Shown: piece by piece, positions 1-55,755 of the stretch
Layout: the number at the start of each line of letters is the position of its first letter
Numbering within the stretch: the first letter of the stretch is position 1
Source: Nemertoderma westbladi
Taxonomy: Eukaryota; Animalia; Xenacoelomorpha
Assembly: GCA_032718475.1 (NCBI GenBank)
Contig: JAUCBJ010009120.1
Location: forward strand, 41,909 to 105,908
Direction: 5' to 3'
DNA: 64,000 nt
Program-made: the position numbers and the translations under genes
The notes under the pieces: generated by a model
The model's input: the letters and a program-made list of their open reading frames with translations, nothing else
Told to the model about the DNA's origin: nothing
The model's database searches: none

Positions 1-3000
1 GTCAATGAGTTTCATCATGAGTTAGTTGAGTCAATGAGCTTCCTCACGAGTTAGGTGAGCCAATGAGCTTCCTCACGAGTTAGGTAAGTCAATGAGCTTC
101 ATCATGAGTTAGGTGAGTCAATGAGCTTCCTCACGAGTTAGGTGAGTCATTGAGCTTCCTCACGAGTTAGGTAAGTCAATGAGTTTCATCATGAGTTAGG
201 TGAGTCAATGAGCTTCCTCACGAGTTAGGTGAGTCCATGAGCTTCCTTACGAGTTAGGTAAGTCAATGAGCTTCATCTTGAGTTAGTGAGTCAATGAGCT
301 TCCTCACGAGTTAGGTGAGTCAATGAGCTTCGTCACGAGTTTGGTGAGTCAATGAGCTTCCTCACGAGTTAGGTGAGTCAATGAACTTCCTCACGAGTTA
401 GGTGAGTCCATAAGCTTCCTCACGAGTTAGGTAAGTCAATGAGCTTCATCATGAGTTGGGTGAGTCAGTGAGCTTCCTCGTTAGTTAGGTGAGTCATTGA
501 GCTTCCTCACCAGTTAGGTAAGTCAATGAGCTTCATCATGAGTTAGGTGAGTCAATGAGCTTCCTCACGAGTTAGGTGAGTCAATGAGCTTCCTCACGAG
601 TTAGGTGAGTCATTGAGCTTCCTCACGAGTTAGGTGAGTCATTGAGCTTCCTCACGAGTTAGGTAAGTCAATGAGCTTCCTCACTAGTTAGGTGTGTCCA
701 TGAGCTTCCTTACGAGTTAGGTAAGTCAATGAGCTTCATCTTGAGTTAGTGAGTCAATGAGATTCCTCACGAGTTAGGTAAGTCAATGAGCTTCCTCACG
801 AGTTAGGTGAGTCAATGAGCTTCCTCACGAGTTAGGTGAGTCCATGAGCTTCCTTACGAGTTAGGTAAGTCAATGAGCTTCATCATGAGTTAGGTGAGTC
901 AATGAGCTTCCTCACGAGTTAGGTGAGTCCATGAGCTTCCTTACGAGTTAGGTAAGTCAATGAGCTTCATCTTGAGTTAGTGAGTCAATGAGCTTCCTCA
1001 CGAGTTAGGTGAGTCAATGAGCTTCGTCACGAGTTAGGTGAGTCAATGAGCTTCCTCACGAGTTAGGTGAGTCAATAAACTTCCTCACGAGTTAGGTGAG
1101 TCCATAAGCTTCCTCACGAGTTAGGTAAGTCAATGAGCTTCATCATGAGTTGGGTGAGTCAGTGAGCTTCCTCGTTAGTTAGGTGAGTCATTGAGCTTCC
1201 ATACGAGTTGGGTGAGTCAGTGAGCTTCCTCGTTAGTTAGGTGAGTCATTGAGCTTCCTCACGAGTTGGGTGAGTCAGTGAGCTTCCTCGTTAGTTAGGT
1301 GAGTCATTGAGCTTCCATACGAGTTGGGTGAGTCAGTGAGCTTCCTCGTGAGTTAGGTGAGTCATTGAGCTTCCTTATGAGTTAGGTAAGTCAATGAGTT
1401 TCATCATGAGTTAGTTGAGTCAATGAGCTTCCTCACGAGTTAGGTGAGCCAATGAGCTTCCTCACGAGTTAGGTAAGTCAATGAGCTTCATCATGAGTTA
1501 GGTGAGTCAATGAGCTTCCTCACGAGTTAGGTGAGTCATTGAGCTTCCTCACGAGTTAGGTAAGTCAATGAGTTTCATCATGAGTTAGGTGAGTCAATGA
1601 GCTTCCTCACGAGTTAGGTGAGTCCATGAGCTTCCTTACGAGTTAGGTAAGTCAATGAGCTTCATCTTGAGTTAGTGAGTCAATGAGCTTCCTCACGAGT
1701 TAGGTGAGTCAATGAGCTTCGTCACGAGTTTGGTGAGTCAATGAGCTTCCTCACGAGTTAGGTGAGTCAATGAACTTCCTCACGAGTTAGGTGAGTCCAT
1801 AAGCTTCCTCACGAGTTAGGTAAGTCAATGAGCTTCATCATGAGTTGGGTGAGTCAGTGAGCTTCCTCGTTAGTTAGGTGAGTCATTGAGCTTCCTCACC
1901 AGTTAGGTAAGTCAATGAGCTTCATCATGAGTTAGGTGAGTCAATGAGCTTCCTCACGAGTTAGGTGAGTCAATGAGCTTCCTCACGAGTTAGGTGAGTC
2001 ATTGAGCTTCCTCACGAGTTAGGTGAGTCATTGAGCTTCCTCACGAGTTAGGTAAGTCAATGAGCTTCCTCACTAGTTAGGTGTGTCCATGAGCTTCCTT
2101 ACGAGTTAGGTAAGTCAATGAGCTTCATCTTGAGTTAGTGAGTCAATGAGATTCCTCACGAGTTAGGTAAGTCAATGAGCTTCCTCACGAGTTAGGTGAG
2201 TCAATGAGCTTCCTCACGAGTTAGGTGAGTCCATGAGCTTCCTTACGAGTTAGGTAAGTCAATGAGCTTCATCATGAGTTAGGTGAGTCAATGAGCTTCC
2301 TCACGAGTTAGGTGAGTCCATGAGCTTCCTTACGAGTTAGGTAAGTCAATGAGCTTCATCTTGAGTTAGTGAGTCAATGAGCTTCCTCACGAGTTAGGTG
2401 AGTCAATGAGCTTCGTCACGAGTTAGGTGAGTCAATGAGCTTCCTCACGAGTTAGGTGAGTCAATAAACTTCCTCACGAGTTAGGTGAGTCCATAAGCTT
2501 CCTCACGAGTTAGGTAAGTCAATGAGCTTCATCATGAGTTGGGTGAGTCAGTGAGCTTCCTCGTTAGTTAGGTGAGTCATTGAGCTTCCATACGAGTTGG
2601 GTGAGTCAGTGAGCTTCCTCGTTAGTTAGGTGAGTCATTGAGCTTCCTCACGAGTTGGGTGAGTCAGTGAGCTTCCTCGTTAGTTAGGTGAGTCATTGAG
2701 CTTCCATACGAGTTGGGTGAGTCAGTGAGCTTCCTCGTGAGTTAGGTGAGTCATTGAGCTTCCTTATGAGTTAGGTAAGTCAATGAGTTTCATCATGAGT
2801 TAGTTGAGTCAATGAGCTTCCTCACGAGTTAGGTGAGCCAATGAGCTTCCTCACGAGTTAGGTAAGTCAATGAGCTTCATCATGAGTTAGGTGAGTCAAT
2901 GAGCTTCCTCACGAGTTAGGTGAGTCCATGAGCTTCCTTACGAGATAGGTAAGTCAATGAGCTTCATCATGAGTTAGGTGAGTCAATGAGCTTCCTCACT

Positions 3001-6000
3001 AGTTAGGTGTGTCCATGAGCTTCCTTACGAGTTAGGTAAGTCAATGAGCTCCATCTTGAGTTAGTGAGTCAATGAGATTCCTCACGAGTTAGGTAAGTCA
3101 ATGAGCTTCATCATGAGTTAGGTGAGTCAATGAGCTTCCTCACGAGTTAGGTGAGTCCATGAGCTTCCTTACGAGTTAGGTAAGTCAATGAGCTTCATCA
3201 TGAGTTAGGTGAGTCAATGAGCTTCCTCACGAGTTAGGTGAGTCCATGAGCTTCCTTACGAGTTAGGTAAGTCAATGAGCTTCATCTTGAGTTAGTGAGT
3301 CCATGAGCTTCCTTACGAGTTAGGTAAGTCAATGAGTTTCATCATGAGTTAGTTGAGTCAATGAGCTTCCTCACGAGTTAGGTGAGCCAATGAGCTTCCT
3401 CACGAGTTAGGTAAGTCAATGAGCTTCATCATGAGTTAGGTGAGTCAATGAGCTTCCTCACGAGTTAGGTGAGTCCATGAGCTTCCTTACGAGTTAGGTA
3501 AGTCAATGAGCTTCTTCATGAGTTAGGTGAGTCAATGAGCTTCCTCACGAGTTAGGTAAGTCAATGAGCTTCATCTTGAGTTAGGTGAGTCCATGAGCTT
3601 CCTTACGAGTTAGGTAAGTCAATGAGCTTCATCTTGAGTTAGTGAGTCAATGAGCTTCCTCACGAGTTAGGTGAGTCAATGAGCTTCGTCACGAGTTAGG
3701 TGAGTCAATGAGCTTCCTCACGAGTTAGGTGAACCAATGAGCTTCCTCACGAGTTAGGTAAGTCAATGAGCTTCATCATGAGTTAGGTGAGTCAATGAGC
3801 TTCCCCACGAGTTAGGTGAGCCAATGAGCTTCCGCACGAGTTATGTGAGTCAATGGGCTTCATCATGAGTTAGGTGAGTCAATGAGCTTCCTCACGAGTT
3901 AGGTGAGTCAATGAGCTTCCTCACGATTTAGGTGAGTCCATGAGCATCTTTACGATGTAGGTGAGTCAATGACCTTCCTCACGTGTTAGGTGAGTCAATG
4001 AGCTTCCTCGCGAGTTAGTTGAATCCATGAGCTTCCTCATGAGTTAGGTGAGTCCATGAGCTTCCTCACGAGTTAGGTGAGTCCATGAGTTTCCTCACAG
4101 GTTAGGTGAGTCCATGAGCTTCCTCACGAGTTAGGTGTGTTCGTGAGCTTCCTCACTAGTTAGGTGAGTCAATGAGCTTCCTCACGAGTTAGGTGAGTTA
4201 TTGAGTTTCCTCGTGAGTTAGGTGAGTCATTGAGCTTCCTCGTGAGTTAGGTGAGTCCATGAGCTTCCTCGCGAGTTAGTTGAGTCAATGAGCTTCCTCA
4301 CGAGTTAGGTGAGTCTATGAGCTTCCTCACAAGTTAGGTGAGTTATTGAGTTTCCTCGTGAGTTAGGTGAGTCCATGAGCTTCCTCGCGAGTTAGGTGAG
4401 TCAATAAGCTTCCTCACGAGTTAGGTGAGTCCATGAGCTTCCTCACGAGTTAGGTGAGTTATTGAGTTTCCTCGTGAGTTAGGTGAGTCATTGAGCTTCC
4501 TCGTGAGTTAGGTGAGACATTGAGCTTCCTCACGAGTTAGGTGAGTCCATGAGCTTCCTCGCGAGTTAGGTAAGTCCATGAGCTTCCTCACGAGTTAGGT
4601 GAGTCAATGAGCTTCCTCACGAGTTAGGTGATTTCATGAGCTTCCTCACGAGTTAGGTGAGTCCATGAGGTTCCTCACGAGTTAGGTGAGTCAATGAGCT
4701 TCATCATGAATTAGGTGAGTCATTGAGCTTCCTCGTGAGTTAGGTGAGTCCACGAGCTTCCTCACGAGTTGGGTGAGTCAGTGAGCTTCATCATGAGTTA
4801 GGTGAGACCATGAGCTTCCTCACGAGTTGGGTGAGTCAATGAGCTTCATCATGAGTTAGGTGAGTCATTGAGCTTCCTCGTGAGTTAGGTGAGTCCACGA
4901 GCTTCCTCACGAGTTGGGTGAGTCAATGAGCTTCATCATGAGTTAGGTGAGACCATGAGCTTCCTCACGAGTTGGGTGAGTCCATGAGCGTCTTCACGAG
5001 TTAGGTGAGTCCATGGGCTTCCTCACGAGTTAGGTGAGTTATTGAGTTTCCTCGTGAGTTAGGTGAGTCATTGAGCTTCCTCGTGAGTTAGGTGAGTCCA
5101 TGAGCTTCATCATGAGTTAGGTGAGTCCATGAGCTTCCTCACGAGTTAGGTGAGTCAGTGAGCTTCCTCACGAGTTAGGTGAGTCAATGAGCTTCCTCAC
5201 GAGTTAGGTGAGTCAATGAGCTTCCTCACGAGTTAGGTGAGTCCATGAGCTTCCTCACGAGTTAGGTGAGTCCATGAGGTTCCTCACGAGTTAGCTGAGT
5301 CCATAAGCTTCCTCACGAGTTAGGTGAGTCCACGAGCTTCCTCACGTGTTAGGTGAGTCCATGAGTTTCCTCACGAGTTAGGTGAGTCCATGAGTTTCCT
5401 CACAAGTTAGGTGAGTCAATGAGCTTCCTCACGAGTTAGGTGAGTCCATGAGCTTCCTCACGAGTTAGGTGTGTCCACGAGCTTCCTCACGAGTTAGGTG
5501 AGTCCATGAGCTTCCCCACGAGTTAGGTGAGTCCATGAGTTCCCTCACAAGTTAGGTGAGTCAATGAGCTTCCTCACGAGTTAGGTGAGTCCATGAGCTT
5601 CCTCACGAGTTAGGTGAGTCCATGAGGTTCCTCACGAGTTAGCTGAGTCCATAAGCTTCCTCACGAGTTAGGTGAGTCCACGAGCTTCCTCACGAGTTAG
5701 GTGAGTCAATGAGCTTCATCATGAGTTAGGTGAGACCATGAGCTTCCTTACGAGTTGGGTGAGTCCATGAGCGTCTTCACGAGTTAGGTGAGTCCATGAG
5801 CTTCCTCACGAGTTAGGTGAGTTATTGAGTTTCCTCGTGAGTTAGGTGAGTCATTGAGTTTCCTCACGAGTTAGGTGAGTCATTGAGCTTCCTCGTGAGT
5901 TAGGTGAGTCCATGAGCTTCCTCACGAGTTAGGTGAGTCCATGAGGTTCCTCACGAGTTAGCTGAGTCCATAAGCTTCCTCACGAGTTAGGTGAGTCATT

Positions 6001-9000
6001 GAGCTTCCTCGTGAGTTAGGTGAGTCAGTGAGCTTCCTCGCGAGTTAGGTGAGTCAATGAGTTTCCTCACGAGTTAGGTGAGTCCATGAGCTTCCTCACG
6101 AGTTAGGTGAGTCCATGAGGTTCCTCACGAGTTAGCTGAGTCCATAAGCTTCCTCACGAGTTAGGTGAGTCCACGAGCTTCCTCACGAGTTAGGTGAGTC
6201 CATGAGTTTCCTCACGAGTTAGGTGAGTCCATGAGTTTCCTCACAAGTTAGATGAGTCCATGAGCTTCCTCACGAGTTAGGTGAGTTCGTGAGCTTCCTC
6301 ACTAGTTAGGTGAGTCCATGAGCTTCCTCACGAGTTAGGTGAGTCCATGAGCTTCCTCACGAGTTAGGTGAGTCCATGAGCTTTATCGCGAGTTAGGCGA
6401 GTCCATGAGCTTCCTCATGAGTTGGGTGAGTCAGTGAGCTTCCTCGTGAGTTAGGTGAGTCATGGATCTTCCTCGTGAGTTAGGTGAGTCCATGAGCTTC
6501 CTCACGAGTTAGGTGAGTCCATGAGCTTCCTCACGAGTTAGGTGAGTCCATGAGTTCCCTCACAAGTTAGGTGAGTCAATGAGCTTCCTCACGAGTTAGG
6601 TGAGTCCATGAGCTTCCTCACGAGTTAGGTGAGTCAATGAGCTTCCTCACGAGTTAGGTGAGTCCATGAGCTTCCTCACGAGTTAGGTGAGTCCATGAGG
6701 TTCCTCACGAGTTAGCTGAGTCCATAAGCTTCCTCACGAGTTAGGTGAGTCCACGAGCTTCCTCACGAGTTAGGTGAGTCAATGAGCTTCATCATGAATT
6801 AGGTGAGACCATGAGCTTCCTCACGAGTTGGGTGAGTCCATGAGCGTCTTCACGAGTTAGGTGAGTCCATGAGCTTCCTCACGAGTTAGGTGAGTTATTG
6901 AGTTTCCTCGTGAGTTAGGTGAGTCATTGAGTTTCCTCACGCGTTAGGTGAGTCATTGAGCTTCCTCGTGAGTTAGGTGAGTCCATGAGCTTCCTCACGA
7001 GTTAGGTGAGTCCATGAGGTTCCTCACGAGTTAGCTGAGTCCATAAGCTTCCTCACGAGTTAGGTGAGTCATTGAGCTTCCTCGTGAGTTAGGTGAGTCA
7101 GTGAGCTTCCTCGCGAGTTAGGTGAGTCAATGAGCTTCCTCACGAATTAGGTGAGTCCATGAGCTTCCTCACGAGTTAGGTGAGTCCATGAGGTTCCTCA
7201 CGAGTTAGCTGAGTCCATAAGCTTCCTCACGAGTTAGGTGAGTCCACGAGCTTCCTCACGAGTTAGGTGAGTCTATGAGTTTCCTCACGAGTTAGGTGAG
7301 TCCATGAGTTTCCTCACAAGTTAGATGAGTCCATGAGCTTCCTCACGAGTTAGGTGAGTTCGTGAGCTTCCTCACTAGTTAGGTGAGTCCATGAGCTTCC
7401 TCACGAGTTAGGTGAGTCCATGAGCTTCCTCACGAGTTAGGTGAGTCCATGAGCTTTATCGCGAGTTAGGCGAGTCCATGAGCTTCCTCATGAGTTGGGT
7501 GAGTCAGTGAGCTTCCTCGTGAGTTAGGTGAGTCATGGATCTTCCTCGTGAGTTAGGTGAGTCCATGAGCTTCCTCACGAGTTAGGTGAGTCCATGAGCT
7601 TCCTCACGAGTTAGGTGAGTCCATGAGTTCCCTCACAAGTTAGGTGAGTCAATGAGCTTCCTCACGAGTTAGGTGAGTCCATGAGCTTCCTCACGAGTTA
7701 GGTGAGTCCATGAGGTTCCTCACGAGTTAGGTGAGTCCACGAGCTTCCTCACGAGTTAGGTGAGTCAATGAGCTTCATCATGAGTTAGGTGAGACCATGA
7801 GCTTCCTCACGAGTTGGGTGAGTCCATGAGCGTCTTCACGAGTTAGGTGAGTCCATGAGCTTCCTCACGAGTTAGGTGAGTTATTGAGTTTCCTCGTGAG
7901 TTAGGTGAGTCATTGAGCTTCCTCGTGAGTTAGGTGAGTCCATGAGCTTCATCATGAGTTAGGTGAGTCCATGAGCTTCCTCACGAGTTAGGTGAGTCAT
8001 TGAGCTTCCTCGTGAGTTAGGTGAGTCAGTGAGCTTCCTCGCGAGTTAGGTGAGTCAATGATCTTCCTCACGAGTTAGGTGAGTCCATGAGCTTCCTCAC
8101 GAGTTAGGTGAGTCCATGAGGTTCCTCACGAGTTAGCTGAGTCCATAAGCTTCCTCACGAGTTAGGTGAGTCCACGAGCTTCCTCACGAGTTAGGTGAGT
8201 CCATGAGTTTCCTCACGAGTTAGGTGAGTCCATGAGTTTCCTCACAAGTTAGATGAGTCCATGAGCTTCCTCACGAGTTAGGTGAGTTTGTGAGCTTCCT
8301 CACTAGTTAGGTGAGTCCATGAGCTTCCTCACGAGTTAGGTGAGTCCATGAGCTTCCTCACGAGTTAGGTGAGTCCATGAGCTTTATCGCGAGTTAGGCG
8401 AGTCCATGAGCTTCCTCATGAGTTGGGTGAGTCAGTGAGCTTCCTCGTGAGTTAGGTGAGTCATGGATCTTCCTCGTGAGTTAAGTGAGTCCATGAGCTT
8501 CCTCACGAGTTAGGTGAGTCCATGAGCTTCCTCACGAGTTAGGTGAGTCCATGAGTTCCCTCACAAGTTAGGTGAGTCAATGAGCTTCCTCACGAGTTAG
8601 GTGAGTCCATGAGCTTCCTCACGAGTTAGGTGAGTCCATGAGGTTCCTCACGAGTTAGGTGAGTCCACGAGCTTCCTCACGAGTTAGGTGAGTCAATGAG
8701 CTTCATCATGAGTTAGGTGAGACCATGAGCTTCCTCACGAGTTGGGTGAGTCCATGAGCGTCTTCACGAGTTAGGTGAGTCCATGAGCTTCCTCACGAGT
8801 TAGGTGAGTTATTGAGTTTCCTCGTGAGTTAGGTGAGTCATTGAGCTTCCTCGTGAGTTAGGTGAGTCCATGAGCTTCATCATGAGTTAGGTGAGTCCAT
8901 GAGCTTCCTCACGAGTTAGGTGAGTCAGTGAGCTTCCTCACGAGTTAGGTGAGTCAATGAGCTTCCTCACGAGTTAGGTGAGTCAATGAGCTTCCTCACG

Positions 9001-12000
9001 AGTTAGGTGAGTCCATGAGCTTCCTCACGAGTTAGGTGAGTCCATGAGGTTCCTCACGAGTTAGCTGAGTCCATAAGCTTCCTCACGAGTTAGGTGAGTC
9101 CACGAGCTTCCTCACGAGTTAGGTGAGTCCATGAGTTTCCTCACGAGTTAGGTGAGTCCATGAGTTTCCTCACAAGTTAGGTGAGTCAATGAGCTTCCTC
9201 ACGAGTTAGGTGAGTCCATGAGCTTCCTCACGAGTTAGGTGTGTCCACGAGCTTCCTCACGAGTTAGGTGAGTCCATGAGCTTCCCCACGAGTTAGGTGA
9301 GTCCATGAGTTCCCTCACAAGTTAGGTGAGTCAATGAGCTTCCTCACGAGTTAGGTGAGTCCATGAGCTTCCTCACGAGTTAGGTGAGTCCATGAGTTCC
9401 CTCACAAGTTAGGTGAGTCAATGAGCTTCCTCACGAGTTAGGTGAGTCCATGAGCTTCCTCACGAGTTAGGTGAGTCCATGAGGTTCCTCACGAGTTAGC
9501 TGAGTCCATAAGCTTCCTCACGAGTTAGGTGAGTCCACGAGCTTCCTCACGAGTTAGGTGAGTCAATGAGCTTCATCATGAGTTAGGTGAGACCATGAGC
9601 TTCCTCACGAGTTGGGTGAGTCCATGAGCGTCTTCACGAGTTAGGTGAGTCCATGAGCTTCCTCACGAGTTAGGTGAGTTATTGAGTTTCCTCGTGAGTT
9701 AGGTGAGTCATTGAGTTTCCTCACGAGTTAGGTGAGTCCACGAGCTTCCTCACGAGTTAGGTGAGTCAATGAGCTTCATCATGAGTTAGGTGAGACCATG
9801 AGCTTCCTCACGAGTTGGGTGAGTCCATGAGCGTCTTCACGAGTTAGGTGAGTCCCTGAGCTTCCTCACGAGTTAGGTGAGTTATTGAGTTTCCTCGTGA
9901 GTTAGGTGAGTCCATGAGCTGCCTCACGAGTTAGGTAAGTCAATGAGCTTCATCATGAGTTAGGTGAGTCCATGAGCTTCCTTACGAGTTAGGTAAGTCA
10001 ATGAGCTTCATCATGAGTTAGGTGAGTCAATGAGCTTCCTCACGAGTTAGGTGAGTCCATAAGCTTCCTTACGAGTTAGGTAAGTCAATGAGCTTCATCA
10101 TGAGTTAGGTGAGTCAATGAGCTTCGTCACGAGTTAGGTGAGTCAATGAGCTTCCTCACGAGTTAGGTGACTCAATGAGCTTCCTCACGAGTTAGGTGAG
10201 TCCATGAGCTTCCTCACGAGTTAGGTGAGTTATTGAGTTTCCTCGTGAGTTAGGTAAGTCAATGAGCTTCATCATGAGTTAGGTGAGTCCATGAGCTTCC
10301 TTACGAGTTAGGTAAGTCAATGAGTTTCATCATGAGTTAGTTGAGTCAATGAGCTTCCTCACGAGTTAGGTGAGCCAATGAGCTTCCTCACGAGTTAGGT
10401 GAGTCAATGAGCTTTCTCACGAGTTAGGTGAGTCAATGAGCTTCCTCACGATTTAGGTGAGTCCATGAGCATCTTTACGATGTAGGTGAGTCAATGACCT
10501 TCCTCACGTGTTAGGTGAGTCAATGAGCTTCGTCACGAGTTAGGTGAGTCAGTGAGCTTCATCATGAGTTAGGTGAGACCATGAGCTTCCTCACGAGTTG
10601 GGTGAGTCCATGAGCGTCTTCACGAGTTAGGTGAGTCCATGAGCTTCCTCACGAGTTAGGTGAGTCCATGAGCTTCCTCGCGAGTTAGCTGAGTCAATGA
10701 GCTTCCTCACGAGTTAGGTGAGTCCATGAGCTTCCTCACGAAGGTGAGTCCATGAGGTTCCTCCGAGTTAGTTGAATCCATGAGCTTCCTCATGAGTTAG
10801 GTGAGTCCATGAGCTTCCTCACGAGTTAGGTGAGTCAATGAGCTTCATCATGAGTTAGGTGAGACCATGAGCTTCCTCACGAGTTGGGTGAGTCCATGAG
10901 CGTCTTCACGAGTTAGGTGAGTCCATGAGCTTCCTCACGAGTTAGGTGAGTTATTGAGTTTCCTCGTGAGTTAGGTGAGTCATTGAGCTTCCTCGTGAGT
11001 TAGGTGAGTCCATGAGCTTCCTCACGAGTTAGGTGAGTCCATGAGCTTCCTCACGAGTTAGGTGAGTCCATGAGTTCCCTCACAAGTTAGGTGAGTCAAT
11101 GAGCTTCCTCACGAGTTAGGTGAGTCCATGAGCTTCCTCACGAGTTAGGTGAGTCAGTGAGCTTCATCATGAGTTAGGTGAGACCATGAGCTTCCTCACG
11201 AGTTGGGTGAGTCCATGAGCGTCTTCACGAGTTAGGTGAGTCCATGAGCTTCCTCACGAGTTAGGTGAGTCCATGAGCTTCCTCGCGAGTTAGCTGAGTC
11301 AATGAGCTTCCTCACGAGTTAGGTGAGTCCATGAGCTTCCTCACGAAGGTGAGTCCATGAGGTTCCTCCGAGTTAGTTGAATCCATGAGCTTCCTCATGA
11401 GTTAGGTGAGTCCATGAGCTTCCTCACGAGTTAGGTGAGTCAATGAGCTTCATCATGAGTTAGGTGAGACCATGAGCTTCCTCACGAGTTGGGTGAGTCC
11501 ATGAGCGTCTTCACGAGTTAGGTGAGTCCATGAGCTTCCTCACGAGTTAGGTGAGTTATTGAGTTTCCTCGTGAGTTAGGTGAGTCATTGAGCTTCCTCG
11601 TGAGTTAGGTGAGTCCATGAGCTTCCTCACGAGTTAGGTGAGTCCATGAGCTTCCTCACGAGTTAGGTGAGTCCATGAGTTCCCTCACAAGTTAGGTGAG
11701 TCAATGAGCTTCCTCACGAGTTAGGTGAGTCCATGAGCTTCCTCACGAGTTAGGTGAGTCCATGAGGTTCCTCACGAGTTAGGTGAGTCCACGAGCTTCC
11801 TCACGAGTTAGGTGAGTCAATGAGCTTCATCATGAGTTAGGTGAGACCATGAGCTTCCTCACGAGTTGGGTGAGTCCATGAGCGTCTTCACGAGTTAGGT
11901 GAGTCCATGAGCTTCCTCACGAGTTAGGTGAGTTATTGAGTTTCCTCGTGAGTTAGGTGAGTCATTGAGCTTCCTCGTGAGTTAGGTGAGTCCATGAGCT

Positions 12001-15000
12001 TCATCATGAGTTAGGTGAGTCCATGAGCTTCCTCACGAGTTAGGTGAGTCATTGAGCTTCCTCGTGAGTTAGGTGAGTCAGTGAGCTTCCTCGCGAGTTA
12101 GGTGAGTCAATGAGCTTCCTCACGAGTTAGGTGAGTCCATGAGCTTCCTCACGAGTTAGGTGAGTCCATGAGGTTCCTCACGAGTTAGCTGAGTCCATAA
12201 GCTTCCTCACGAGTTAGGTGAGTCCACGAGCTTCCTCACGAGTTAGGTGAGTCCATGAGTTTCCTCACGAGTTAGGTGAGTCCATGAGTTTCCTCACAAG
12301 TTAGATGAGTCCATGAGCTTCCTCACGAGTTAGGTGAGTTCGTGAGCTTCCTCACTAGTTAGGTGAGTCCATGAGCTTCCTCACGAGTTAGGTGAGTCCA
12401 TGAGCTTCCTCACGAGTTAGGTGAGTCCATGAGCTTTATCGCGAGTTAGGCGAGTCCATGAGCTTCCTCATGAGTTGGGTGAGTCAGTGAGCTTCCTCGT
12501 GAGTTAGGTGAGTCATGGATCTTCCTCGTGAGTTAGGTGAGTCCATGAGCTTCCTCACGAGTTAGGTGAGTCCATGAGCTTCCTCACGAGTTAGGTGAGT
12601 CCATGAGTTCCCTCACAAGTTAGGTGAGTCAATGAGCTTCCTCACGAGTTAGGTGAGTCCATGAGCTTCCTCACGAGTTAGGTGAGTCCATGAGGTTCCT
12701 CACGAGTTAGGTGAGTCCACGAGCTTCCTCACGAGTTAGGTGAGTCAATGAGCTTCATCATGAGTTAGGTGAGACCATGAGCTTCCTCACGAGTTGGGTG
12801 AGTCCATGAGCGTCTTCACGAGTTAGGTGAGTCCATGAGCTTCCTCACGAGTTAGGTGAGTTATTGAGTTTCCTCGTGAGTTAGGTGAGTCATTGAGCTT
12901 CCTCGTGAGTTAGGTGAGTCCATGAGCTTCATCATGAGTTAGGTGAGTCCATGAGCTTCCTCACGAGTTAGGTGAGTCAGTGAGCTTCCTCACGAGTTAG
13001 GTGAGTCAATGAGCTTCCTCACGAGTTAGGTGAGTCAATGAGCTTCCTCACGAGTTAGGTGAGTCCATGAGCTTCCTCACGAGTTAGGTGAGTCCATGAG
13101 GTTCCTCACGAGTTAGCTGAGTCCATAAGCTTCCTCACGAGTTAGGTGAGTCCACGAGCTTCCTCACGAGTTAGGTGAGTCCATGAGTTTCCTCACGAGT
13201 TAGGTGAGTCCATGAGGTTCCTCACGAGTTAGCTGAGTCCATAAGCTTCCTCACGAGTTAGGTGAGTCCACGAGCTTCCTCACGAGTTAGGTGAGTCAAT
13301 GAGCTTCCTCACGATTTAGGTGAGTCCATGAGCATCTTTACGATGTAGGTGAGTCAATGACCTTCCTCACGTGTTAGGTGAGTCAATGAGCTTCCTCGCG
13401 AGTTAGTTGAATCCATGAGCTTCCTCATGAGTTAGGTGAGTCCATGAGCTTCCTCACGAGTTAGGTGAGTCCATGAGTTTCCTCACAGGTTAGGTGAGTC
13501 CATGAGCTTCCTCACGAGTTAGGTGTGTTCGTGAGCTTCCTCACTAGTTAGGTGAGTCAATGAGCTTCCTCACGAGTTAGGTGAGTTATTGAGTTTCCTC
13601 GTGAGTTAGGTGAGTCATTGAGCTTCCTCGTGAGTTAGGTGAGTCCATGAGCTTCCTCGCGAGTTAGTTGAGTCAATGAGCTTCCTCACGAGTTAGGTGA
13701 GTCTATGAGCTTCCTCACAAGTTAGGTGAGTTATTGAGTTTCCTCGTGAGTTAGGTGAGTCCATGAGCTTCCTCGCGAGTTAGGTGAGTCAATAAGCTTC
13801 CTCACGAGTTAGGTGAGTCCATGAGCTTCCTCACGAGTTAGGTGAGTTATTGAGTTTCCTCGTGAGTTAGGTGAGTCATTGAGCTTCCTCGTGAGTTAGG
13901 TGAGACATTGAGCTTCCTCACGAGTTAGGTGAGTCCATGAGCTTCCTCGCGAGTTAGGTAAGTCCATGAGCTTCCTCACGAGTTAGGTGAGTCAATGAGC
14001 TTCCTCACGAGTTAGGTGATTTCATGAGCTTCCTCACGAGTTAGGTGAGTCCATGAGGTTCCTCACGAGTTAGGTGAGTCAATGAGCTTCATCATGAATT
14101 AGGTGAGTCATTGAGCTTCCTCGTGAGTTAGGTGAGTCCACGAGCTTCCTCACGAGTTGGGTGAGTCAGTGAGCTTCATCATGAGTTAGGTGAGACCATG
14201 AGCTTCCTCACGAGTTGGGTGAGTCAATGAGCTTCATCATGAGTTAGGTGAGTCATTGAGCTTCCTCGTGAGTTAGGTGAGTCCACGAGCTTCCTCACGA
14301 GTTGGGTGAGTCAATGAGCTTCATCATGAGTTAGGTGAGACCATGAGCTTCCTCACGAGTTGGGTGAGTCCATGAGCGTCTTCACGAGTTAGGTGAGTCC
14401 ATGGGCTTCCTCACGAGTTAGGTGAGTTATTGAGTTTCCTCGTGAGTTAGGTGAGTCATTGAGCTTCCTCGTGAGTTAGGTGAGTCCATGAGCTTCATCA
14501 TGAGTTAGGTGAGTCCATGAGCTTCCTCACGAGTTAGGTGAGTCAGTGAGCTTCCTCACGAGTTAGGTGAGTCAATGAGCTTCCTCACGAGTTAGGTGAG
14601 TCAATGAGCTTCCTCACGAGTTAGGTGAGTCCATGAGCTTCCTCACGAGTTAGGTGAGTCCATGAGGTTCCTCACGAGTTAGCTGAGTCCATAAGCTTCC
14701 TCACGAGTTAGGTGAGTCCACGAGCTTCCTCACGTGTTAGGTGAGTCCATGAGTTTCCTCACGAGTTAGGTGAGTCCATGAGTTTCCTCACAAGTTAGGT
14801 GAGTCAATGAGCTTCCTCACGAGTTAGGTGAGTCCATGAGCTTCCTCACGAGTTAGGTGTGTCCACGAGCTTCCTCACGAGTTAGGTGAGTCCATGAGCT
14901 TCCCCACGAGTTAGGTGAGTCCATGAGTTCCCTCACAAGTTAGGTGAGTCAATGAGCTTCCTCACGAGTTAGGTGAGTCCATGAGCTTCCTCACGAGTTA

Positions 15001-18000
15001 GGTGAGTCCATGAGGTTCCTCACGAGTTAGCTGAGTCCATAAGCTTCCTCACGAGTTAGGTGAGTCCACGAGCTTCCTCACGAGTTAGGTGAGTCAATGA
15101 GCTTCATCATGAGTTAGGTGAGACCATGAGCTTCCTCACGAGTTGGGTGAGTCCATGAGCGTCTTCACGAGTTAGGTGAGTCCATGAGCTTCCTCACGAG
15201 TTAGGTGAGTTATTGAGTTTCCTCGTGAGTTAGGTGAGTCATTGAGTTTCCTCACGAGTTAGGTGAGTCATTGAGCTTCCTCGTGAGTTAGGTGAGTCCA
15301 TGAGCTTCCTCACGAGTTAGGTGAGTCCATGAGGTTCCTCACGAGTTAGCTGAGTCCATAAGCTTCCTCACGAGTTAGGTGAGTCATTGAGCTTCCTCGT
15401 GAGTTAGGTGAGTCAGTGAGCTTCCTCGCGAGTTAGGTGAGTCAATGAGTTTCCTCACGAGTTAGGTGAGTCCATGAGCTTCCTCACGAGTTAGGTGAGT
15501 CCATGAGGTTCCTCACGAGTTAGCTGAGTCCATAAGCTTCCTCACGAGTTAGGTGAGTCCACGAGCTTCCTCACGAGTTAGGTGAGTCCATGAGTTTCCT
15601 CACGAGTTAGGTGAGTCCATGAGTTTCCTCACAAGTTAGATGAGTCCATGAGCTTCCTCACGAGTTAGGTGAGTTCGTGAGCTTCCTCACTAGTTAGGTG
15701 AGTCCATGAGCTTCCTCACGAGTTAGGTGAGTCCATGAGCTTCCTCACGAGTTAGGTGAGTCCATGAGCTTTATCGCGAGTTAGGCGAGTCCATGAGCTT
15801 CCTCATGAGTTGGGTGAGTCAGTGAGCTTCCTCGTGAGTTAGGTGAGTCATGGATCTTCCTCGTGAGTTAGGTGAGTCCATGAGCTTCCTCACGAGTTAG
15901 GTGAGTCCATGAGCTTCCTCACGAGTTAGGTGAGTCCATGAGTTCCCTCACAAGTTAGGTGAGTCAATGAGCTTCCTCACGAGTTAGGTGAGTCCATGAG
16001 CTTCCTCACGAGTTAGGTGAGTCAATGAGCTTCCTCACGAGTTAGGTGAGTCCATGAGCTTCCTCACGAGTTAGGTGAGTCCATGAGGTTCCTCACGAGT
16101 TAGCTGAGTCCATAAGCTTCCTCACGAGTTAGGTGAGTCCACGAGCTTCCTCACGAGTTAGGTGAGTCAATGAGCTTCATCATGAATTAGGTGAGACCAT
16201 GAGCTTCCTCACGAGTTGGGTGAGTCCATGAGCGTCTTCACGAGTTAGGTGAGTCCATGAGCTTCCTCACGAGTTAGGTGAGTTATTGAGTTTCCTCGTG
16301 AGTTAGGTGAGTCATTGAGTTTCCTCACGCGTTAGGTGAGTCATTGAGCTTCCTCGTGAGTTAGGTGAGTCCATGAGCTTCCTCACGAGTTAGGTGAGTC
16401 CATGAGGTTCCTCACGAGTTAGCTGAGTCCATAAGCTTCCTCACGAGTTAGGTGAGTCATTGAGCTTCCTCGTGAGTTAGGTGAGTCAGTGAGCTTCCTC
16501 GCGAGTTAGGTGAGTCAATGAGCTTCCTCACGAATTAGGTGAGTCCATGAGCTTCCTCACGAGTTAGGTGAGTCCATGAGGTTCCTCACGAGTTAGCTGA
16601 GTCCATAAGCTTCCTCACGAGTTAGGTGAGTCCACGAGCTTCCTCACGAGTTAGGTGAGTCTATGAGTTTCCTCACGAGTTAGGTGAGTCCATGAGTTTC
16701 CTCACAAGTTAGATGAGTCCATGAGCTTCCTCACGAGTTAGGTGAGTTCGTGAGCTTCCTCACTAGTTAGGTGAGTCCATGAGCTTCCTCACGAGTTAGG
16801 TGAGTCCATGAGCTTCCTCACGAGTTAGGTGAGTCCATGAGCTTTATCGCGAGTTAGGCGAGTCCATGAGCTTCCTCATGAGTTGGGTGAGTCAGTGAGC
16901 TTCCTCGTGAGTTAGGTGAGTCATGGATCTTCCTCGTGAGTTAGGTGAGTCCATGAGCTTCCTCACGAGTTAGGTGAGTCCATGAGCTTCCTCACGAGTT
17001 AGGTGAGTCCATGAGTTCCCTCACAAGTTAGGTGAGTCAATGAGCTTCCTCACGAGTTAGGTGAGTCCATGAGCTTCCTCACGAGTTAGGTGAGTCCATG
17101 AGGTTCCTCACGAGTTAGGTGAGTCCACGAGCTTCCTCACGAGTTAGGTGAGTCAATGAGGTTCATCATGAGTTAGGTGAGACCATGAGCTTCCTCACGA
17201 GTTGGGTGAGTCCATGAGCGTCTTCACGAGTTAGGTGAGTCCATGAGCTTCCTCACGAGTTAGGTGAGTTATTGAGTTTCCTCGTGAGTTAGGTGAGTCA
17301 TTGAGCTTCCTCGTGAGTTAGGTGAGTCCATGAGCTTCATCATGAGTTAGGTGAGTCCATGAGCTTCCTCACGAGTTAGGTGAGTCATTGAGCTTCCTCG
17401 TGAGTTAGGTGAGTCAGTGAGCTTCCTCGCGAGTTAGGTGAGTCAATGAGCTTCCTCACGAGTTAGGTGAGTCCATGAGCTTCCTCACGAGTTAGGTGAG
17501 TCCATGAGGTTCCTCACGAGTTAGCTGAGTCCATAAGCTTCCTCACGAGTTAGGTGAGTCCACGAGCTTCCTCACGAGTTAGGTGAGTCCATGAGTTTCC
17601 TCACGAGTTAGGTGAGTCCATGAGTTTCCTCACAAGTTAGATGAGTCCATGAGCTTCCTCACGAGTTAGGTGAGTTCGTGAGCTTCCTCACTAGTTAGGT
17701 GAGTCCATGAGCTTCCTCACGAGTTAGGTGAGTCCATGAGCTTCCTCACGAGTTAGGTGAGTCCATGAGCTTTATCGCGAGTTAGGCGAGTCCATGAGCT
17801 TCCTTATGAGTTGGGTGAGTCAGTGAGCTTCCTCGTGAGTTAGGTGAGTCATGGATCTTCCTCGTGAGTTAGGTGAGTCCATGAGCTTCCTCACGAGTTA
17901 TGTGAGTCCATGAGCTTCCTCACGAGTTAGGTGAGTCCATGAGTTCCCTCACAAGTTAGGTGAGTCAATGAGCTTCCTCACGAGTTAGGTGAGTCCATGA

Positions 18001-21000
18001 GCTTCCTCACGAGTTAGGTGAGTCCATGAGGTTCCTCACGAGTTAGGTGAGTCCACGAGCTTCCTCACGAGTTAGGTGAGTCAATGAGCTTCATCATGAG
18101 TTAGGTGAGACCATGAGCTTCCTCACGAGTTGGGTGAGTCCATGAGCGTCTTCACGAGTTAGGTGAGTCCATGAGCTTCCTCACGAGTTAGGTGAGTTAT
18201 TGAGTTTCCTCGTGAGTTAGGTGAGTCATTGAGCTTCCTCGTGAGTTAGGTGAGTCCATGAGCTTCATCATGAGTTAGGTGAGTCCATGAGCTTCCTCAC
18301 GAGTTAGGTGAGTCAGTGAGCTTCCTCACGAGTTAGGTGAGTCAATGAGCTTCCTCACGAGTTAGGTGAGTCAATGAGCTTCCTCACGAGTTAGGTGAGT
18401 CCATGAGCTTCCTCACGAGTTAGGTGAGTCCATGAGGTTCCTCACGAGTTAGCTGAGTCCATAAGCTTCCTCACGAGTTAGGTGAGTCCACGAGCTTCCT
18501 CACGAGTTAGGTGAGTCCATGAGTTTCCTCACGAGTTAGGTGAGTCCATGAGTTTCCTCACAAGTTAGGTGAGTCAATGAGCTTCCTCACGAGTTAGGTG
18601 AGTCCATGAGCTTCCTCACGAGTTAGGTGTGTCCACGAGCTTCCTCACGAGTTAGGTGAGTCCATGAGCTTCCCCACGAGTTAGGTGAGTCCATGAGTTC
18701 CCTCACAAGTTAGGTGAGTCAATGAGCTTCCTCACGAGTTAGGTGAGTCCATGAGCTTCCTCACGAGTTAGGTGAGTCCATGAGTTCCCTCACAAGTTAG
18801 GTGAGTCAATGAGCTTCCTCACGAGTTAGGTGAGTCCATGAGCTTCCTCACGAGTTAGGTGAGTCCATGAGGTTCCTCACGAGTTAGCTGAGTCCATAAG
18901 CTTCCTCACGAGTTAGGTGAGTCCACGAGCTTCCTCACGAGTTAGGTGAGTCAATGAGCNNNNNNNNNNNNNNNNNNNNNNNNNNNNNNNNNNNNNNNNN
19001 NNNNNNNNNNNNNNNNNNNNNNNNNNNNNNNNNNNNNNNNNNNNNNNNNNNNNNNNNNNCACGAGTTAGGTGAGCCAATGAGCTTCCTCACGAGTTAGGT
19101 AAGTCAATGAGCTTCATCATGAGATAGGTGAATCAATGAGCTTCCCCACGAGTTAGGTGAGCCAATGAGCTTCCTCACGAGTTAGGTGAGTCAATGAGCT
19201 TTCTCACGAGTTAGGTGAGTCAATGAGCTTCCTCACGATTTAGGTGAGTCCATGAGCATCTTTACGATGTAGGTGAGTCAATGACCTTCCTCACGTGTTA
19301 GGTGAGTCAATGAGCTTCGTCACGAGTTAGGTGAGTCAGTGAGCTTCATCATGAGTTAGGTGAGACCATGAGCTTCCTCACGAGTTGGGTGAGTCCATGA
19401 GCGTCTTCACGAGTTAGGTGAGTCCATGAGCTTCCTCACGAGTTAGGTGAGTCCATGAGCTTCCTCGCGAGTTAGCTGAGTCAATGAGCTTCCTCACGAG
19501 TTAGGTGAGTCCATGAGCTTCCTCACGAAGGTGAGTCCATGAGGTTCCTCCGAGTTAGTTGAATCCATGAGCTTCCTCATGAGTTAGGTGAGTCCATGAG
19601 CTTCCTCACGAGTTAGGTGAGTCAATGAGCTTCATCATGAGTTAGGTGAGACCATGAGCTTCCTCACGAGTTGGGTGAGTCCATGAGCGTCTTCACGAGT
19701 TAGGTGAGTCCATGAGCTTCCTCACGAGTTAGGTGAGTTATTGAGTTTCCTCGTGAGTTAGGTGAGTCATTGAGCTTCCTCGTGAGTTAGGTGAGTCCAT
19801 GAGCTTCCTCGCGAGTTGGGTGAGTCAGTGAGCTTCCTCACGAGATGGGTGAGTCAGTGAGCCTCCTCGCTAGTTAGGTGAGTCAATGAGCTTCCTCACG
19901 AGTTAGGTGAGTCCATGAGCTTCCTCACGAGTTAGGTGAGTCCATGAGGTTCCTCACGAGTTAGCTGAGTCCATAAGCTTCCTCACGAGTTAGGTGAGTC
20001 CACGAGCTTCCTCACGAGTTAGGTGAGTCCATGAGTTTCCTCACGAGTTAGGTGAGTCCATGAGTTTCCTCACAAGTTAGGAGAGTCCATGAGCTTCCTC
20101 ACGAGTTAGGTGAGTTCGTGAGCTTCCTCACTAGTTAGGTGAGTCCATGAGCTTCCTCACCAGTTAGGTGAGTCCATGAGCTTCCTCACGAGTTAGGTGA
20201 GTCCATGAGCTTCCTCGCGAGTTAGGTGTGTCCATGAGCTTCCTCATGAGTTGGGTGAGTCAGTGAGCTTCCTCGTGAGTTAGGTGAGTCATGGATCTTC
20301 CTCGTGAGTTAGGTGAGTCATTGAGTTTCCTCGCGGGTTGGGTGAGTCATTGAGTTTCCTCGCGGGTTAGGTGAGTCAGTGAGCTCCCTCGTGAGTTAGG
20401 TGAGTCAATAAGCTTCCTCACGAGTTAGGTGAGTCAGTGAACTTCCTCGTTAGTTAGGTGAGTCATGGATCTTCCTCACGAGTTGAGTGAGTCATTGAGT
20501 TTCCTCGCGGGTTGGGTGAGTCATTGAGTTTCCTCGCGGGTTGGGTGAGTCATTGAGTTTCCTCGCGGGTTGGGTGAGTCATTGAGTTTCCTCGCGGGTT
20601 GGGTGAGTCATTCAGTTTCCTCGCGGGTTGGGTGAGTCAGTGAGCTTCATCGTGAGTTAGGTGAGTCAGTGAGCTTCCTCACGAGTTAGGTGAGTCATTG
20701 AGTTTCCTCGCGGGTTGGGTGAGTCATTGAGTTTCCTCGCGGGTTGGGTGAGTCATTGAGTTTCCTCGCGGGTTGGGTGAGTCATTGAGTTTACTCGCGG
20801 GTTGGGTGAGTCATTGAGTTTCCTCGCGGGTTGGGTGAGTCATTGAGTTTCCTCGCGGGTTGGGTGAGTCATTGAGTTTACTCGCGGGTTGGGTGAGTCA
20901 TTGAGTTTCCTCGCGGGTTGGGTGAGTCATTGAGTTTCCTCGCGGGTTAGGTGAGTCAGTGAGCTCCCTCGTGAGTTAGGTGAGTCATTGAGTTTCCTCG

Positions 21001-21174
21001 CGGGTTGGGTGAGTCATTGAGTTTCCTCGCGGGTTGGGTGAGTCATTGAGCTTCCTCACGAGTTGAGTGAGTCATTGAGTTTCCTCGCGGGTTGGGTGAG
21101 TCATTGAGTCTCCTCGCGGGTTGGGTGAGTCATTGAGTTTCCTCGCGGGTTGGGTGAGTCATTGAGTTTCCTCG
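1..21174 (+). repeat. 29-bp tandem satellite, about 730 visible units, consensus CATGAGCTTCCTCACGAGTTAGGTGAGTC; intronic in the SLC39A gene; runs off the left edge
   Basis: Period of 29 read directly (AGTTAGGTGA at 541 and 570). Variant units and higher-order blocks are present. Copy number is array length divided by 29. Confidence 0.99.
18960..19059. other. Assembly gap (100 N) inside the satellite
   Basis: Run of exactly 100 N, so the true array length is unknown. Confidence 0.99.
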
Positions 21175-21301
21175 GGGATTAATCTGCTCCACTATGAATT
21201 ACGTGAGCCAGGGATATTCTTATAAGCATAAGCGATTATATTACAGTAATGCGTGAAGCTATTTTGAGCGACTGTTTATTTGATTTTACTTTTTCCCCCA
21301 G

Positions 21302-21489
21302 GCGACTTTGCTGTACTGTTAAGCAGCGGTATGTCGGCCCGACAAGCGCTGGTTTACGCCGGTCTCTCTTCCTTTCTCAGCTACGTAGGATTGGTGATTG
21401 GGCTTCTAACCGGAGCAATTTCCGGGTCCACACTCTACATATTCGCACTGGCCGGTGGTTTATTTCTATATATCGCCTTGGTTGATATG
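21302..21489 (+). CDS. Penultimate coding exon of a LIV-1 subfamily ZIP (SLC39A) zinc transporter
   Basis: Acceptor TTTTACTTTTTCCCCCAG, phase 1. Encodes (G)DFAVLLSSGMSARQAL...IFALAGGLFLYIALVDM, typical of ZIP TM5-TM7. Donor ATG|GTAAGT at 21490. Paralogue cannot be assigned. Confidence 0.95.
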
Positions 21490-21598
21490 GTAAGTTTAGT
21501 GTTTGTTACTCTGTTAGGTTTCTCCTTGGTTGTCTAAAACTCCGCGGTTACAATGTCGGTTACAATGTCGGTTACAATATTTTAATGTTCCTTCGTAG

Positions 21599-22007: not shown

Positions 22008-22989
22008 TGCATTAACGACGGATTAGTTTCCCAGTTTTTATTTTTACCCCTAACATCACATTGTAAATCACAAAATGTAAGATGATTATAAACTACGTGC
22101 ATTGAAATAATAAATATCAAATATTATACAACATACTATTTTTTTACCATTATCAAAAAATGTACCGTTTTAAAAATGTGCAATTAAAATATATAACATA
22201 TTATGTAAAAAATATTTTACATTGGGAGCTATTATCGTAAATGTTTTTATAAACGGATTTAACCTAAAATCAATGATATTCAACTACAATCAATTAAATT
22301 AATTTTATATGATAACTTTTTGAATTGTAATTTAATGTTATGAGATCGGATATACTCAATTTCGTTATCACTCGGTTCACATAGATTTATAAGATTTCGC
22401 AGACCGGAATATTGGCATCCGGGTTGATACCCGAATATTTTGTACGATAGAATTATAACCTACATTGGATACTGGGATTTCTTGTGGTTAAATAGAAAAT
22501 TTAGCGGAATATTTACATTTCTCAGCTTTCCATTTTAAAGAAACAACAACGTAAGAAATCACCACGAGTCCCTATGAATGACCCAGTTGAGTGTCTATTG
22601 TGTCACTGGATTGGTTTCGTATTTTGCATTGTAATCTAATGAATTAGGTCGGTAATTTTGTTAAAGTATAATTTTGTTTTTACATTATGTCTCACAAGCG
22701 CGTAGACGAAGTACACGATAATCTCTCTGCTTTGCGGTTTTTTGTAGTTTTTATAAGTTTAGTCAAGCACTGGTATATACATATTTATGTTTTGTCGCCC
22801 CAAAACATTTACATACAGTAAATAATAAATGTTTTCATAATGATAAAAATAATACATTGATGCTTCACGGTGCGCCAGTATATCGACAAAGAATTTTGTA
22901 CTACTTTTAGTAGACCTGTTTTTTGTACTTCTAAAATACTCATAAATAGATAGATACAGGGTGTCGCATTATTCATTTTTTAGCGGATA

Positions 22990-23212
22990 GGGGGAAAACT
23001 GGACGCAATAAAAATTCATCGCTCTCCAGGGGAAATTGGACGCAAATAACAGCTGATTACTCTCAAAAATAAAACTGTAACCTGTTCTATTGTATTTAGT
23101 TTATTGTTTTGGTTAAAATAACGTGCCACTGTAACCTGCTCCTTTCCCTAAATTGAGAATTTAACATTTAGGCGGGATATTAATTCGCCAGGATGGGATT
23201 TGCGTCCAGTTC
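22990..23212. repeat. Dispersed repeat (MITE-like), with inverted copies near 35520-35610 and 36330-36490
   Basis: TTTTGGTTAAAATAACGTGCCACTGTAACCTGCTCCTTTCCCT recurs reverse-complemented near 35525 and, more diverged, near 36394. Boundaries are approximate. Confidence 0.7.
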
Positions 23213-24113
23213 CCCCCCCCCCCCCCCTGTCTCTTTTTTTAGACTTCAATTATTTAGATTTTTGTTAGTTTGAGTGAATTAATTCTTGGCCTTTTTAGTT
23301 TCCCGGTAACATACCGGGGGTTTGGTTGCCTTGGTACCACGTACCTCATTAATATTATGTTGAATAATACATCATGAAATTTAAATTATTAATATTTTTG
23401 TGCAGAAAATCCTGTTTTATAGTAAAAACGTATTTTTGGCCAGATTTTTTGATTCAAAGATTTACTAGTGACCTACACTGATACACGACCTACTATTAAC
23501 TTTTATAGTACGTCATTATTGAAAACTTTAACTGTATTTTTGTACAGGTAGACCTATACGGAGTTACAATGACTTCGTAATCTCAGGCATTGTTTGTAAC
23601 GTGTTTTGGAGTATATTAAGTAATTGATAATAATATGTATTGAATTGATATTAAATAGTATTAACAAAATCGTATTATTAAAGTGGTTGTTCCTCTTTCT
23701 TAATATGATTTAGCGTAAATGGTTTTAACGTGGTGTTAATAATTGTATTACCAGTAATCACTACAGTTAACTATTGTACTTTATGAAATGCTCATTAGAA
23801 ATCACTTTGTATTATTCAATTAAATGTTCTTGTTTATAAACAAGATGTTCTAAACACAAATGTTTAGAATCTCTTAGTTTAAAATCATATGTTGGCTAAT
23901 ATACTTATTAATTTATATATATATAATTATTGTAACAATGAAAATGTAATCTTTGGAGCGCAAAGTGCTGCTTTACTTATATTAATTTTTTATTATCAAT
24001 AATAATTTGACAATTATTTATTTGGTGCGATCCTGCCCGTTGCCACTGTAATAATAATGATTGCCTATTGTGTACCGGTACCGGTATGTGTGGTGTGTAG
24101 GCCGACATGAACG

Positions 24114-25365: not shown

Positions 25366-26078
25366 CATTGTTCCATTTATGGTGTAACTTTATGGTTCAT
25401 TGTTCCATTTATGGTGTAACTTTATGGTTCATTGTTCCATTTATGGTGTAACTTTATGGTTCATTGTTCCATTTATGGTGTAACTTTATGGTTCATTGTT
25501 CCATTTATGGTGTAACTTTATGGTTCATTGTTCCATTTATGGTGTAACTTTATGGTTCATTGTTCCATTTATGGTGTAACTTTATGGTTCATTGTTCCAT
25601 TTATGGTGTAACTTTATGGTTCATTGTTCCATTTATGGTGTAACTTTATGGTTCATTGTTCCATTTATGGTGTAACTTTATGGTTCATTGTTCCATTTAT
25701 GGTGTAACTTTATGGTTCATTGTTCCATTTATGGTGTAACTTTATGGTTCATTGTTCCATTTATGGTGTAACTTTATGGTTCATTGTTCCATTTATGGTG
25801 TAACTTTATGGTTCATTGTTCCATTTATGGTGTAACTTTATGGTTCATTGTTCCATTTATGGTGTAACTTTATGGTTCATTGTTCCATTTATGGTGTAAC
25901 TTTATGGTTCATTGTTCCATTTATGGTGTAACTTTATGGTTCATTGTTCCATTTATGGTGTAACTTTATGGTTCATTGTTCCATTTATGGTGTAACTTTA
26001 TGGTTCATTGTTCCATTTATGGTGTAACTTTATGGTTCATTGTTCCATTTATGGTGTAACTTTATGGTTCATTGTTCC
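25366..26078. repeat. Perfect 32-bp minisatellite, about 22 copies (CATTGTTCCATTTATGGTGTAACTTTATGGTT)
   Basis: Period 32; no variant units seen. Confidence 0.98.
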
Positions 26079-28658: not shown

Positions 28659-28690
<32 letters not shown>

Positions 28691-29495
28691 GGTCGAGCGA
28701 ACTCGGACAGTGGAAATGAGATCCTTCCAGGCTTCCCGATTCTCCATAGTTGTCGCAATTTCGTTTCTCCCAAGTTCAGTATCCCTTTCAAGTTGATCTA
28801 TATATGTTATGGCAGGTCGTCCACGACTACGCTTTCCATGAGTTGGTTGCCAGAGAAGTAGATCTGGTATGACCTCGTCTTTACTTCGCCAGCAGTGCCC
28901 ACTGAATCTTAATCTGCGTTCACGGAGGGTGGTTGATACAGGCGGTATTGTACCATAAAGCTCGGCGTTTGTCATGTGTTGTCTCCAGCTGATGTTTAGG
29001 GCTGCCCTTAGTAGTCTTGTGTAGCAACCATCAATTCGTTGTTCAAGTGATTTAGTCAGTGTCCAGGTCTCACCCCCGTATAAAAATACACTTTCCACTG
29101 TGGCTCGAAAGAACTTGGTCTTCAGGTGCCTGGAGAGATCTGATTTCCAGATGGTATCCATTTTTGATAGAGCTACCCAAGCCTTTGGTTTCCTAACTTC
29201 TATGTCCTTTTTGCTACTCTCTATCCATGATCCAAGGTACTGGAAGTCATCGACCTGCCTTAGTTGATTATTATCAATGGTTGTCAAGTTTCCATCAACA
29301 TTAAAGGTCATGAATTCGGTCTTGGTAGCATTTATATGCAATCCAACCTCCTTAGCAGCCCTCTCCACTTTATTTAGTAGAAGCTGTGCCTCTGCTAGCG
29401 TATTAGAGAGCAGGGCGATGTCATCCGCAAAGTCGGTGTCTGTGACTGTAGTTGCCGGATATCTACTACTTCTGCGTTCTTGAAGTGTGATCAAG
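28659..29495 (-). mobile_element. 5'-truncated RTE-type non-LTR retrotransposon (C-terminal RT part) with (TAG)n tail
   Basis: ORF 28688-29494 has DFADD, FQYLGS and RLRFSGHCWR...GRP motifs. The (TAG)n tail begins at the stop codon. GCTGCAGC at 28651 and 29496 is a candidate 8-bp TSD. Confidence 0.93.
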
Positions 29496-29535
29496 GCTGC
29501 AGCAGTACTGCTAAAATAGTCGCCCCAAAAGTTTT

Positions 29536-55705: not shown

Positions 55706-55755
55706 AGTTATATAAGTTGAATGTGGTCTATATCACGTAATCGGTATATAATAAT

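Follow-up and report, generated by a model that had tools for sequence, protein, structure and literature searches.

Tandem repeats that begin with a unit straddling an exon-intron boundary form a described class of minisatellites (PMC1557585). In intron 7 of human F7, a 37-bp VNTR carries five to nine identical donors, and when constructs with up to 12 were examined, the most upstream functional donor was the one used (Borensztajn et al. 2006, PMC1557585). The 31-bp VNTR of human CBS intron 13, c.1444_1467+7(16_21), is composed of 24 exon and 7 intron bases and runs to 15-21 units (PMC2630376); use of two of its later donors has been reported (cited in PMC1557585). The 25-bp VNTR of human ABCA7 intron 18 ranges from 12 to ~427 units and reaches 10678 bp; use of its second donor leads to a premature stop, and VNTR length alters skipping and expression (De Roeck et al. 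2018, PMC5954066). Junction minisatellites in IFI6 (6-16), LMNB2 and PDGF reiterate the donor within the intron in 10-26 units (cited in PMC1557585), and the lancelet 'mirages' are known from Adh3, troponin C, the globins BflGb6 and BflGb9, and PGBD5 (PMC3087553, PMC3902484). Among these precedents are cases in which splicing uses the first donor only or mostly (PMC1557585, PMC3087553, PMC3902484); in CBS, IFI6 and ABCA7 there is some use of later donors (PMC1557585, PMC5954066).

The array described here lies in a 64,000-nucleotide stretch of the Nemertoderma westbladi genome (hereafter the window), and is likely an unusually long example of this class. It is a head-to-tail 29-nt repeat whose unit combines an exon end and a donor in the phase of the host gene. 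As in F7, where the first monomer spans the exon-intron boundary and the pseudo-donors are identical, the donor is repeated with the unit, although F7 has only five to nine units with four exon bases each and was tested in mammalian cells. The 22+7 build of the unit is close to the 24+7 of CBS, which likewise has a donor in each unit, but CBS has 15-21 units whereas the window array has at least 72 contiguous and ~730 assembled. ABCA7 also repeats the donor in each unit and becomes very long; its array begins at the donor and its unit is described as starting with GT, whereas the window unit contains seven codons, and at about half the assembled length of the window array it is the case in which effects on splicing and expression have been measured. 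The intron also reiterates its donor in the manner of IFI6, LMNB2 and PDGF, unlike them in exceeding 10-26 units. With the mirages it shares an invertebrate host, a probable duplication of an exon-intron boundary and diverged edge units; mirages show concerted evolution and no reported harm to splicing, but they have few copies where these were counted (3-6 for BflGb6), and the window array exceeds them in length by two orders of magnitude and has kilobase higher-order repeats. The novelty implied by the initial annotation is not supported: junction minisatellites are a described class, splice choice has been studied experimentally in F7 (PMC1557585), and ABCA7 attains half the length of the window array (PMC5954066). 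Our literature search found no junction repeat in a ZIP/SLC39A gene and, among the papers it listed, no junction array longer than this one, although longer alleles may be given in supplements.

Tandem Repeats Finder, applied to the 64-kb window, identified a period-29 array at 1-21173 (730.6 copies, 88% matches), and tiling resolved it into 726 units (Table 1). The giant 29-mer array of the initial annotation is thus real, although it ends at 21174 and not at 21489, and a gap at 18960-19059 had gone unmentioned. The array runs off the left end of the window, and the upstream exon is outside it.

Table 1. Coordinates of the array and of the adjoining gene, numbered from the first base of the window.
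Feature	Position	Strand	Basis
29-nt array, left of gap, 654 tiled units	1..18959	+	TRF, tiling
Assembly gap of 100 N within array	18960..19059	.	
29-nt array adjoining ZIP exon, 72 whole units and 14-nt final partial unit	19060..21174	+	
Near-exact copy of 3884-9571, offset 9388, 7 mismatches in 5688 nt, stopping exactly at gap	13272..18959	+	
Exact higher-order duplication, offset 1389, 1-1537 = 1390-2926 (1537 nt)	1..2926	+	
Diverged 3' array edge, 31 units, mean 5.6 mismatches per unit versus ~2 in interior, GT in 31/31	20262..21174	+	
Unique remainder of intron, 127 nt, pyrimidine tract and AG acceptor	21175..21301	+	
ZIP (SLC39A, probably LIV-1 type) exon, phase 1 start GC GAC, DFAVLL...YIALVDM	21302..21489	+	
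109-nt GT-AG intron, skipped in contig 25 of run X4	21490..21598	+	
Last coding exon, in frame to stop codon	21599..21757	+	

The commonest unit (86 of 731 tiles) consists of CAT GAG CTT CCT CAC GAG TTA G followed by GTGAGTC and, as had been read initially, translates as HELPHEL and the first base of a G codon, followed by the donor GTGAGT in phase 1. When the unit was shuffled 20000 times, no shuffle allowed a parse into codons plus donor in any rotation or on either strand (analytic estimate 3.5e-9), which places the parse far beyond chance. The proposed division into 22 coding and 7 intronic bases is uncertain by one base: most homologues have a Cys codon ahead of HEL, and the final C may be its third base. 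GT is kept in 668 of 726 units and a full N-R-G + GTRAGT donor in 606 of 726; exact matches to [HE]E[LFI]PHE[LFIM]G+GTRAG are confined to 193 units, all within 4026-20259, and were absent from 100 shuffles. Across the 112 distinct unit types there was no preferential loss of GT from the pseudo-donors, the two positions being changed in 7 (+1) and 2 (+2) types against a range over all positions of 0-69. A search of 21174-64000 that allowed up to 4 mismatches per 20 bases found no copy of the unit. We also note 263 occurrences of TGAGTCA in the array (1-21173), which a single common substitution creates where units meet, and two, in either orientation, in the remaining 43 kb; we take this to be an AP-1-type motif.

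Repeated offsets of 605, 928, 1389 and 9388 nt reveal higher-order structure within the array. Its homogenised interior and diverged 3' edge probably correspond to the pattern described for lancelet mirages (PMC3087553). The 3' end falls inside the exon-like portion of a unit, with no donor after it, which indicates that the end was cut or rearranged after the array was born. The units at the left end of the window lack the exact exon codons, so that either unit 1 lies at some distance from base 1 or drift has affected the left edge as well.

The exon that follows the array begins with GC GAC in the expected phase, as had been claimed, follows a pyrimidine tract and AG, and is recognised as Pfam Zip (PF02535, E 3.3e-10, 40.1 bits versus a cut-off of 35.1). 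All 113 homologues found are ZIP proteins, those with names being ZIP10-, ZIP14- or foi-like, and the best are 65-68% identical over 62 aa. In 98 of the 113, [HE]E[LFI]PHE[LIM]G stands immediately ahead of the D at which the exon starts; the sequence before G-DF is unrelated in 13, which are gene models entering the intron (two with full read-through), and two are without the motif. HEXPHEXGD is the LIV-1 ZIP motif, and with the upstream exon outside the window it arises here only on joining an array unit to the exon at 21302. Judged from its sequence, the host gene is likely a ZIP transporter of LIV-1 type.

We scanned metagenome contigs for the motif followed by a donor and obtained 108 loci, with 2-kb flanks that hide longer introns. 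A ZIP filter kept 85 of the 108, in 47 groups that are clusters of similar exon ends and not species; the 23 dropped were mostly chance matches and included some true ZIP loci (L013, L038, L089 and L094). A downstream acceptor and an exon beginning with D/N-F in phase 1 were present at 51 of the 85 ZIP-like loci, with introns of 47-1774 nt, and this conserved phase-1 position means that the array stands where its own sequence predicts. Of the 46 ZIP groups in which 150 nt or more follow the donor, two have independent arrays at the HELG donor.

In four of the loci (L003, L030, L043 and L091), from another animal, the unit is 31 nt long, with 19 bases from the exon and 12 from the intron. At L043 (2001-2950), an intact exon passes without a break into unit 1 and is followed by 27 donors, unique intron sequence, an acceptor and the next exon, with a stop in the array 26 nt past donor 1; whole introns hold 16 donors at L003 versus 27 at L030 and L043. 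As L043 and L091 are located on opposite strands of one 112-kb contig, two gene copies carry the 31-nt array. At L071 (1180-1690, minus strand), the exon again runs directly into unit 1, and three further copies of exon end plus donor follow at steps of 145, 152 and 141 nt. At the contig end of L071, 91 nt of the next exon also appear to be repeated. Both L043 and L071 display directly the exon-into-unit-1 architecture that had been inferred for the window. The L043 unit differs from that of the window at 7 of 22 positions, and the exons of the array-bearing loci are identical to the window exon at 16-23 of 62 residues; unit length, codons and exon identity show separate origins of the arrays.

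Arrays thus recur at the HELG donor. When all 108 loci were rechecked, no further ZIP array was found, L088 being a non-ZIP repeat, and at the control sites of the same loci, 32 acceptors and 26 next donors, no junction was repeated. The resulting comparison, 2 of 46 HELG donors versus 0 of 58 controls (Fisher p=0.19), does not support a hot spot at this donor. We regard as unlikely the broader proposal that junction repeats have a tendency to arise at the HELG donor in different animals (three independent arrays, with units of 29, 31 and ~145 nt), perhaps because the HEL-P-HEL codons beside the donor form a short internal repeat, and that the window array, with more than 700 donors and 21 kb, is the longest known, its length setting zinc-transporter output.

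Sequence contigs from four runs bear on the splicing and the right-hand junction. Those of runs X1-X3 end no more than ~30 nt after entering the array, which confirms the right array junction in two samples, possibly the sources of the assembly. Run X4 comes from another sample (S3) and study, is labelled 'DNA?' and may not carry the array. The run has no cover at 21150-21248. Its 5240-nt contig skips the 109-nt intron and begins to match at 21300, which is position 2125 of the record; an AG therefore stands directly before the exon, as the end of the unit predicts. Another 2124 letters of other sequence precede 21300; the contig does not distinguish donor 1 from donor 2, and the pre-acceptor length, 2126 nt versus 897-2052 coding nt in 74 homologues, is compatible with a few extra units. 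Because the contig skips the next intron and has these upstream letters, the species has a spliced form that includes sequence from upstream. The contig continues beyond 24100, and its stretch past the stop codon is likely 3' UTR. A 272-nt, very high-copy element at 22985-23256, within the likely 3' UTR, is missing from the X4 contig and so represents a presence-absence insertion; run X4 accordingly holds at least one other allele.

Taken together, we consider it likely that the array is a minisatellite in the conserved HELG/DFA intron of a LIV-1-type ZIP gene, derived from the last 22-23 coding and the first 6-7 intron bases and spliced only at its first copy. The 3' end inside the exon-like part of a unit and the less exon-like units at the left end of the window weigh against this reading. 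The origin from the gene's own exon end and donor, which the initial annotation had put forward, holds up on the parse of the unit, the conserved position and phase of the intron, the lack of other copies in the window and the precedents of L043 and L071. A single short duplication across the donor would have been followed by growth via unequal exchange or slippage, which would have left the higher-order repeats of 605, 928, 1389 and 9388 nt. The most upstream donor would then win, as it did when F7 was tested, through 5'-to-3' scanning together with exon definition, the latter limiting the competition to the first few units. On read-through from 678 possible starting units, the first in-frame stop is met in unit 2 in 615 cases and in unit 3 in 63, which leaves the first donor as the sole one able to yield a transporter; rare use of donor 2 or 3 would lead to a stop codon and a transcript likely cleared by nonsense-mediated decay. 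Since later donors would seldom be used, they would be under little selection, GT would be kept, and the array is likely near neutral. Neutrality is probable, with a counterweight by analogy in the later donors used in CBS, IFI6 and ABCA7 and in the expression effect of ABCA7 length, which make it uncertain.

Several other readings of origin and function were weighed against this one. The HELPHELG motif is common to LIV-1 paralogues, and the unit might have come from such a paralogue, or the array might belong to a dispersed satellite family that is also present here; given that the array occupies exactly the intron, strand and phase its sequence predicts, that the window holds no copy elsewhere, and that the units of L043 and L071 are the ends of their own host exons, we consider this highly unlikely. 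Less probable still is stepwise removal of the intron with TAG + GT of the unit as a recursive splice site. AG does directly precede GT in 587 of 726 units, but an additional AG is present at -20..-3 in 584 of 588 unit sites versus 3 of 47 real acceptors of the HELG intron, and unit sites mostly have 8-9 pyrimidines of 16 at -20..-5 versus a median of 12 in the real acceptors; the array units thus lack the strong acceptor expected of recursive splice sites. A regulatory role is somewhat easier to entertain: the array might tune ZIP output through stop-containing transcripts made from later donors, exon skipping promoted by the long intron, or an enhancer or sink made of TGAGTCA, so that its length would set the transporter level. 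The stop in every read-through and the concentration of TGAGTCA in the array are in keeping with this idea, as is ABCA7, in which VNTR length tracks exon skipping and lower expression (PMC5954066). Yet selection is not needed to explain why a 29-nt frameshift leads to a stop, the TGAGTCA count is explained by one base change copied through amplification, arrays of this kind are absent from 44 of 46 ZIP gene groups, and the window's non-coding DNA has grown other arrays, of 32 and 47 nt, which indicates a genome that readily expands minisatellites; tuning appears to us unlikely. Masking of donors by hairpins was also considered and set aside: a 5-pair stem is possible over each donor, but donor 1 would be masked too, and the fold of four units is no better than that of shuffles (z -0.07).

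Whatever its function, an origin from the exon end is compatible with several lengths. Only 72 units (2.1 kb) are contiguous with the ZIP exon, owing to the 100-N gap, so that the array is certainly 2.1 kb, would be ~12 kb if the 9388-nt copy is false, and is more than 21 kb as assembled. It is possible, though we think it the weaker case, that the length is inflated or mis-joined and that the real array is ~12 kb or, at this place, only 2.1 kb. The gap interrupts the array, the copy at offset 9388 terminates exactly there, and a 1389-nt duplication within the array is exact; the X1-X3 contigs stop too soon after entering the array to speak to its length. However, the 751 nt right of the gap extend the higher-order pattern, with 9 mismatches to 10273-11023, a continuation to be expected of a real 9.4-kb duplication with ~700 nt missing, and the number of unit types together with regional shifts in consensus require an array that is genuinely long.

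The rest of the window contains repeats and genes of other kinds. A perfect 32-nt array occupies 25366-26078 (22.3 copies, 100% identical), and a 47-nt array at 58122-64000 (at least 125 copies, 98%) runs off the right end. The latter abuts a 5'-truncated Penelope-like element, from which its derivation was ruled out; two tandem, near-identical Penelope-like ORFs of 910 and 718 aa, with GIY-YIG domains (Pfam), lie at 53000-58120 on the minus strand. Fragments of non-LTR retrotransposon reverse transcriptase are present at 28688-29563 (RVT_1 confirmed), 48193-48870 and 49075-50774. An ATP6AP2 (renin receptor)-like frame of 357 aa at 33673-34746 is without introns, its best relatives being 27-29% identical; the vertebrate ATP6AP2 gene has several exons. 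An uninterrupted frame of 1032 aa at 41968-45066 has PLAT, polycystin and PKD channel domains.

A large tandem array can here probably be traced to the exact coding bases from which it arose. Should its length be as assembled, the longest junction repeat we found described (ABCA7, 427 units) is about half as long, and a single intron of this animal accommodates intact donor copies by the hundred. The locus would then be a natural stress test, outside mammals, of the rule that the first donor wins, and the recurrence of arrays at one ZIP donor among unrelated animals raises the question of whether some junctions are prone to such duplication.
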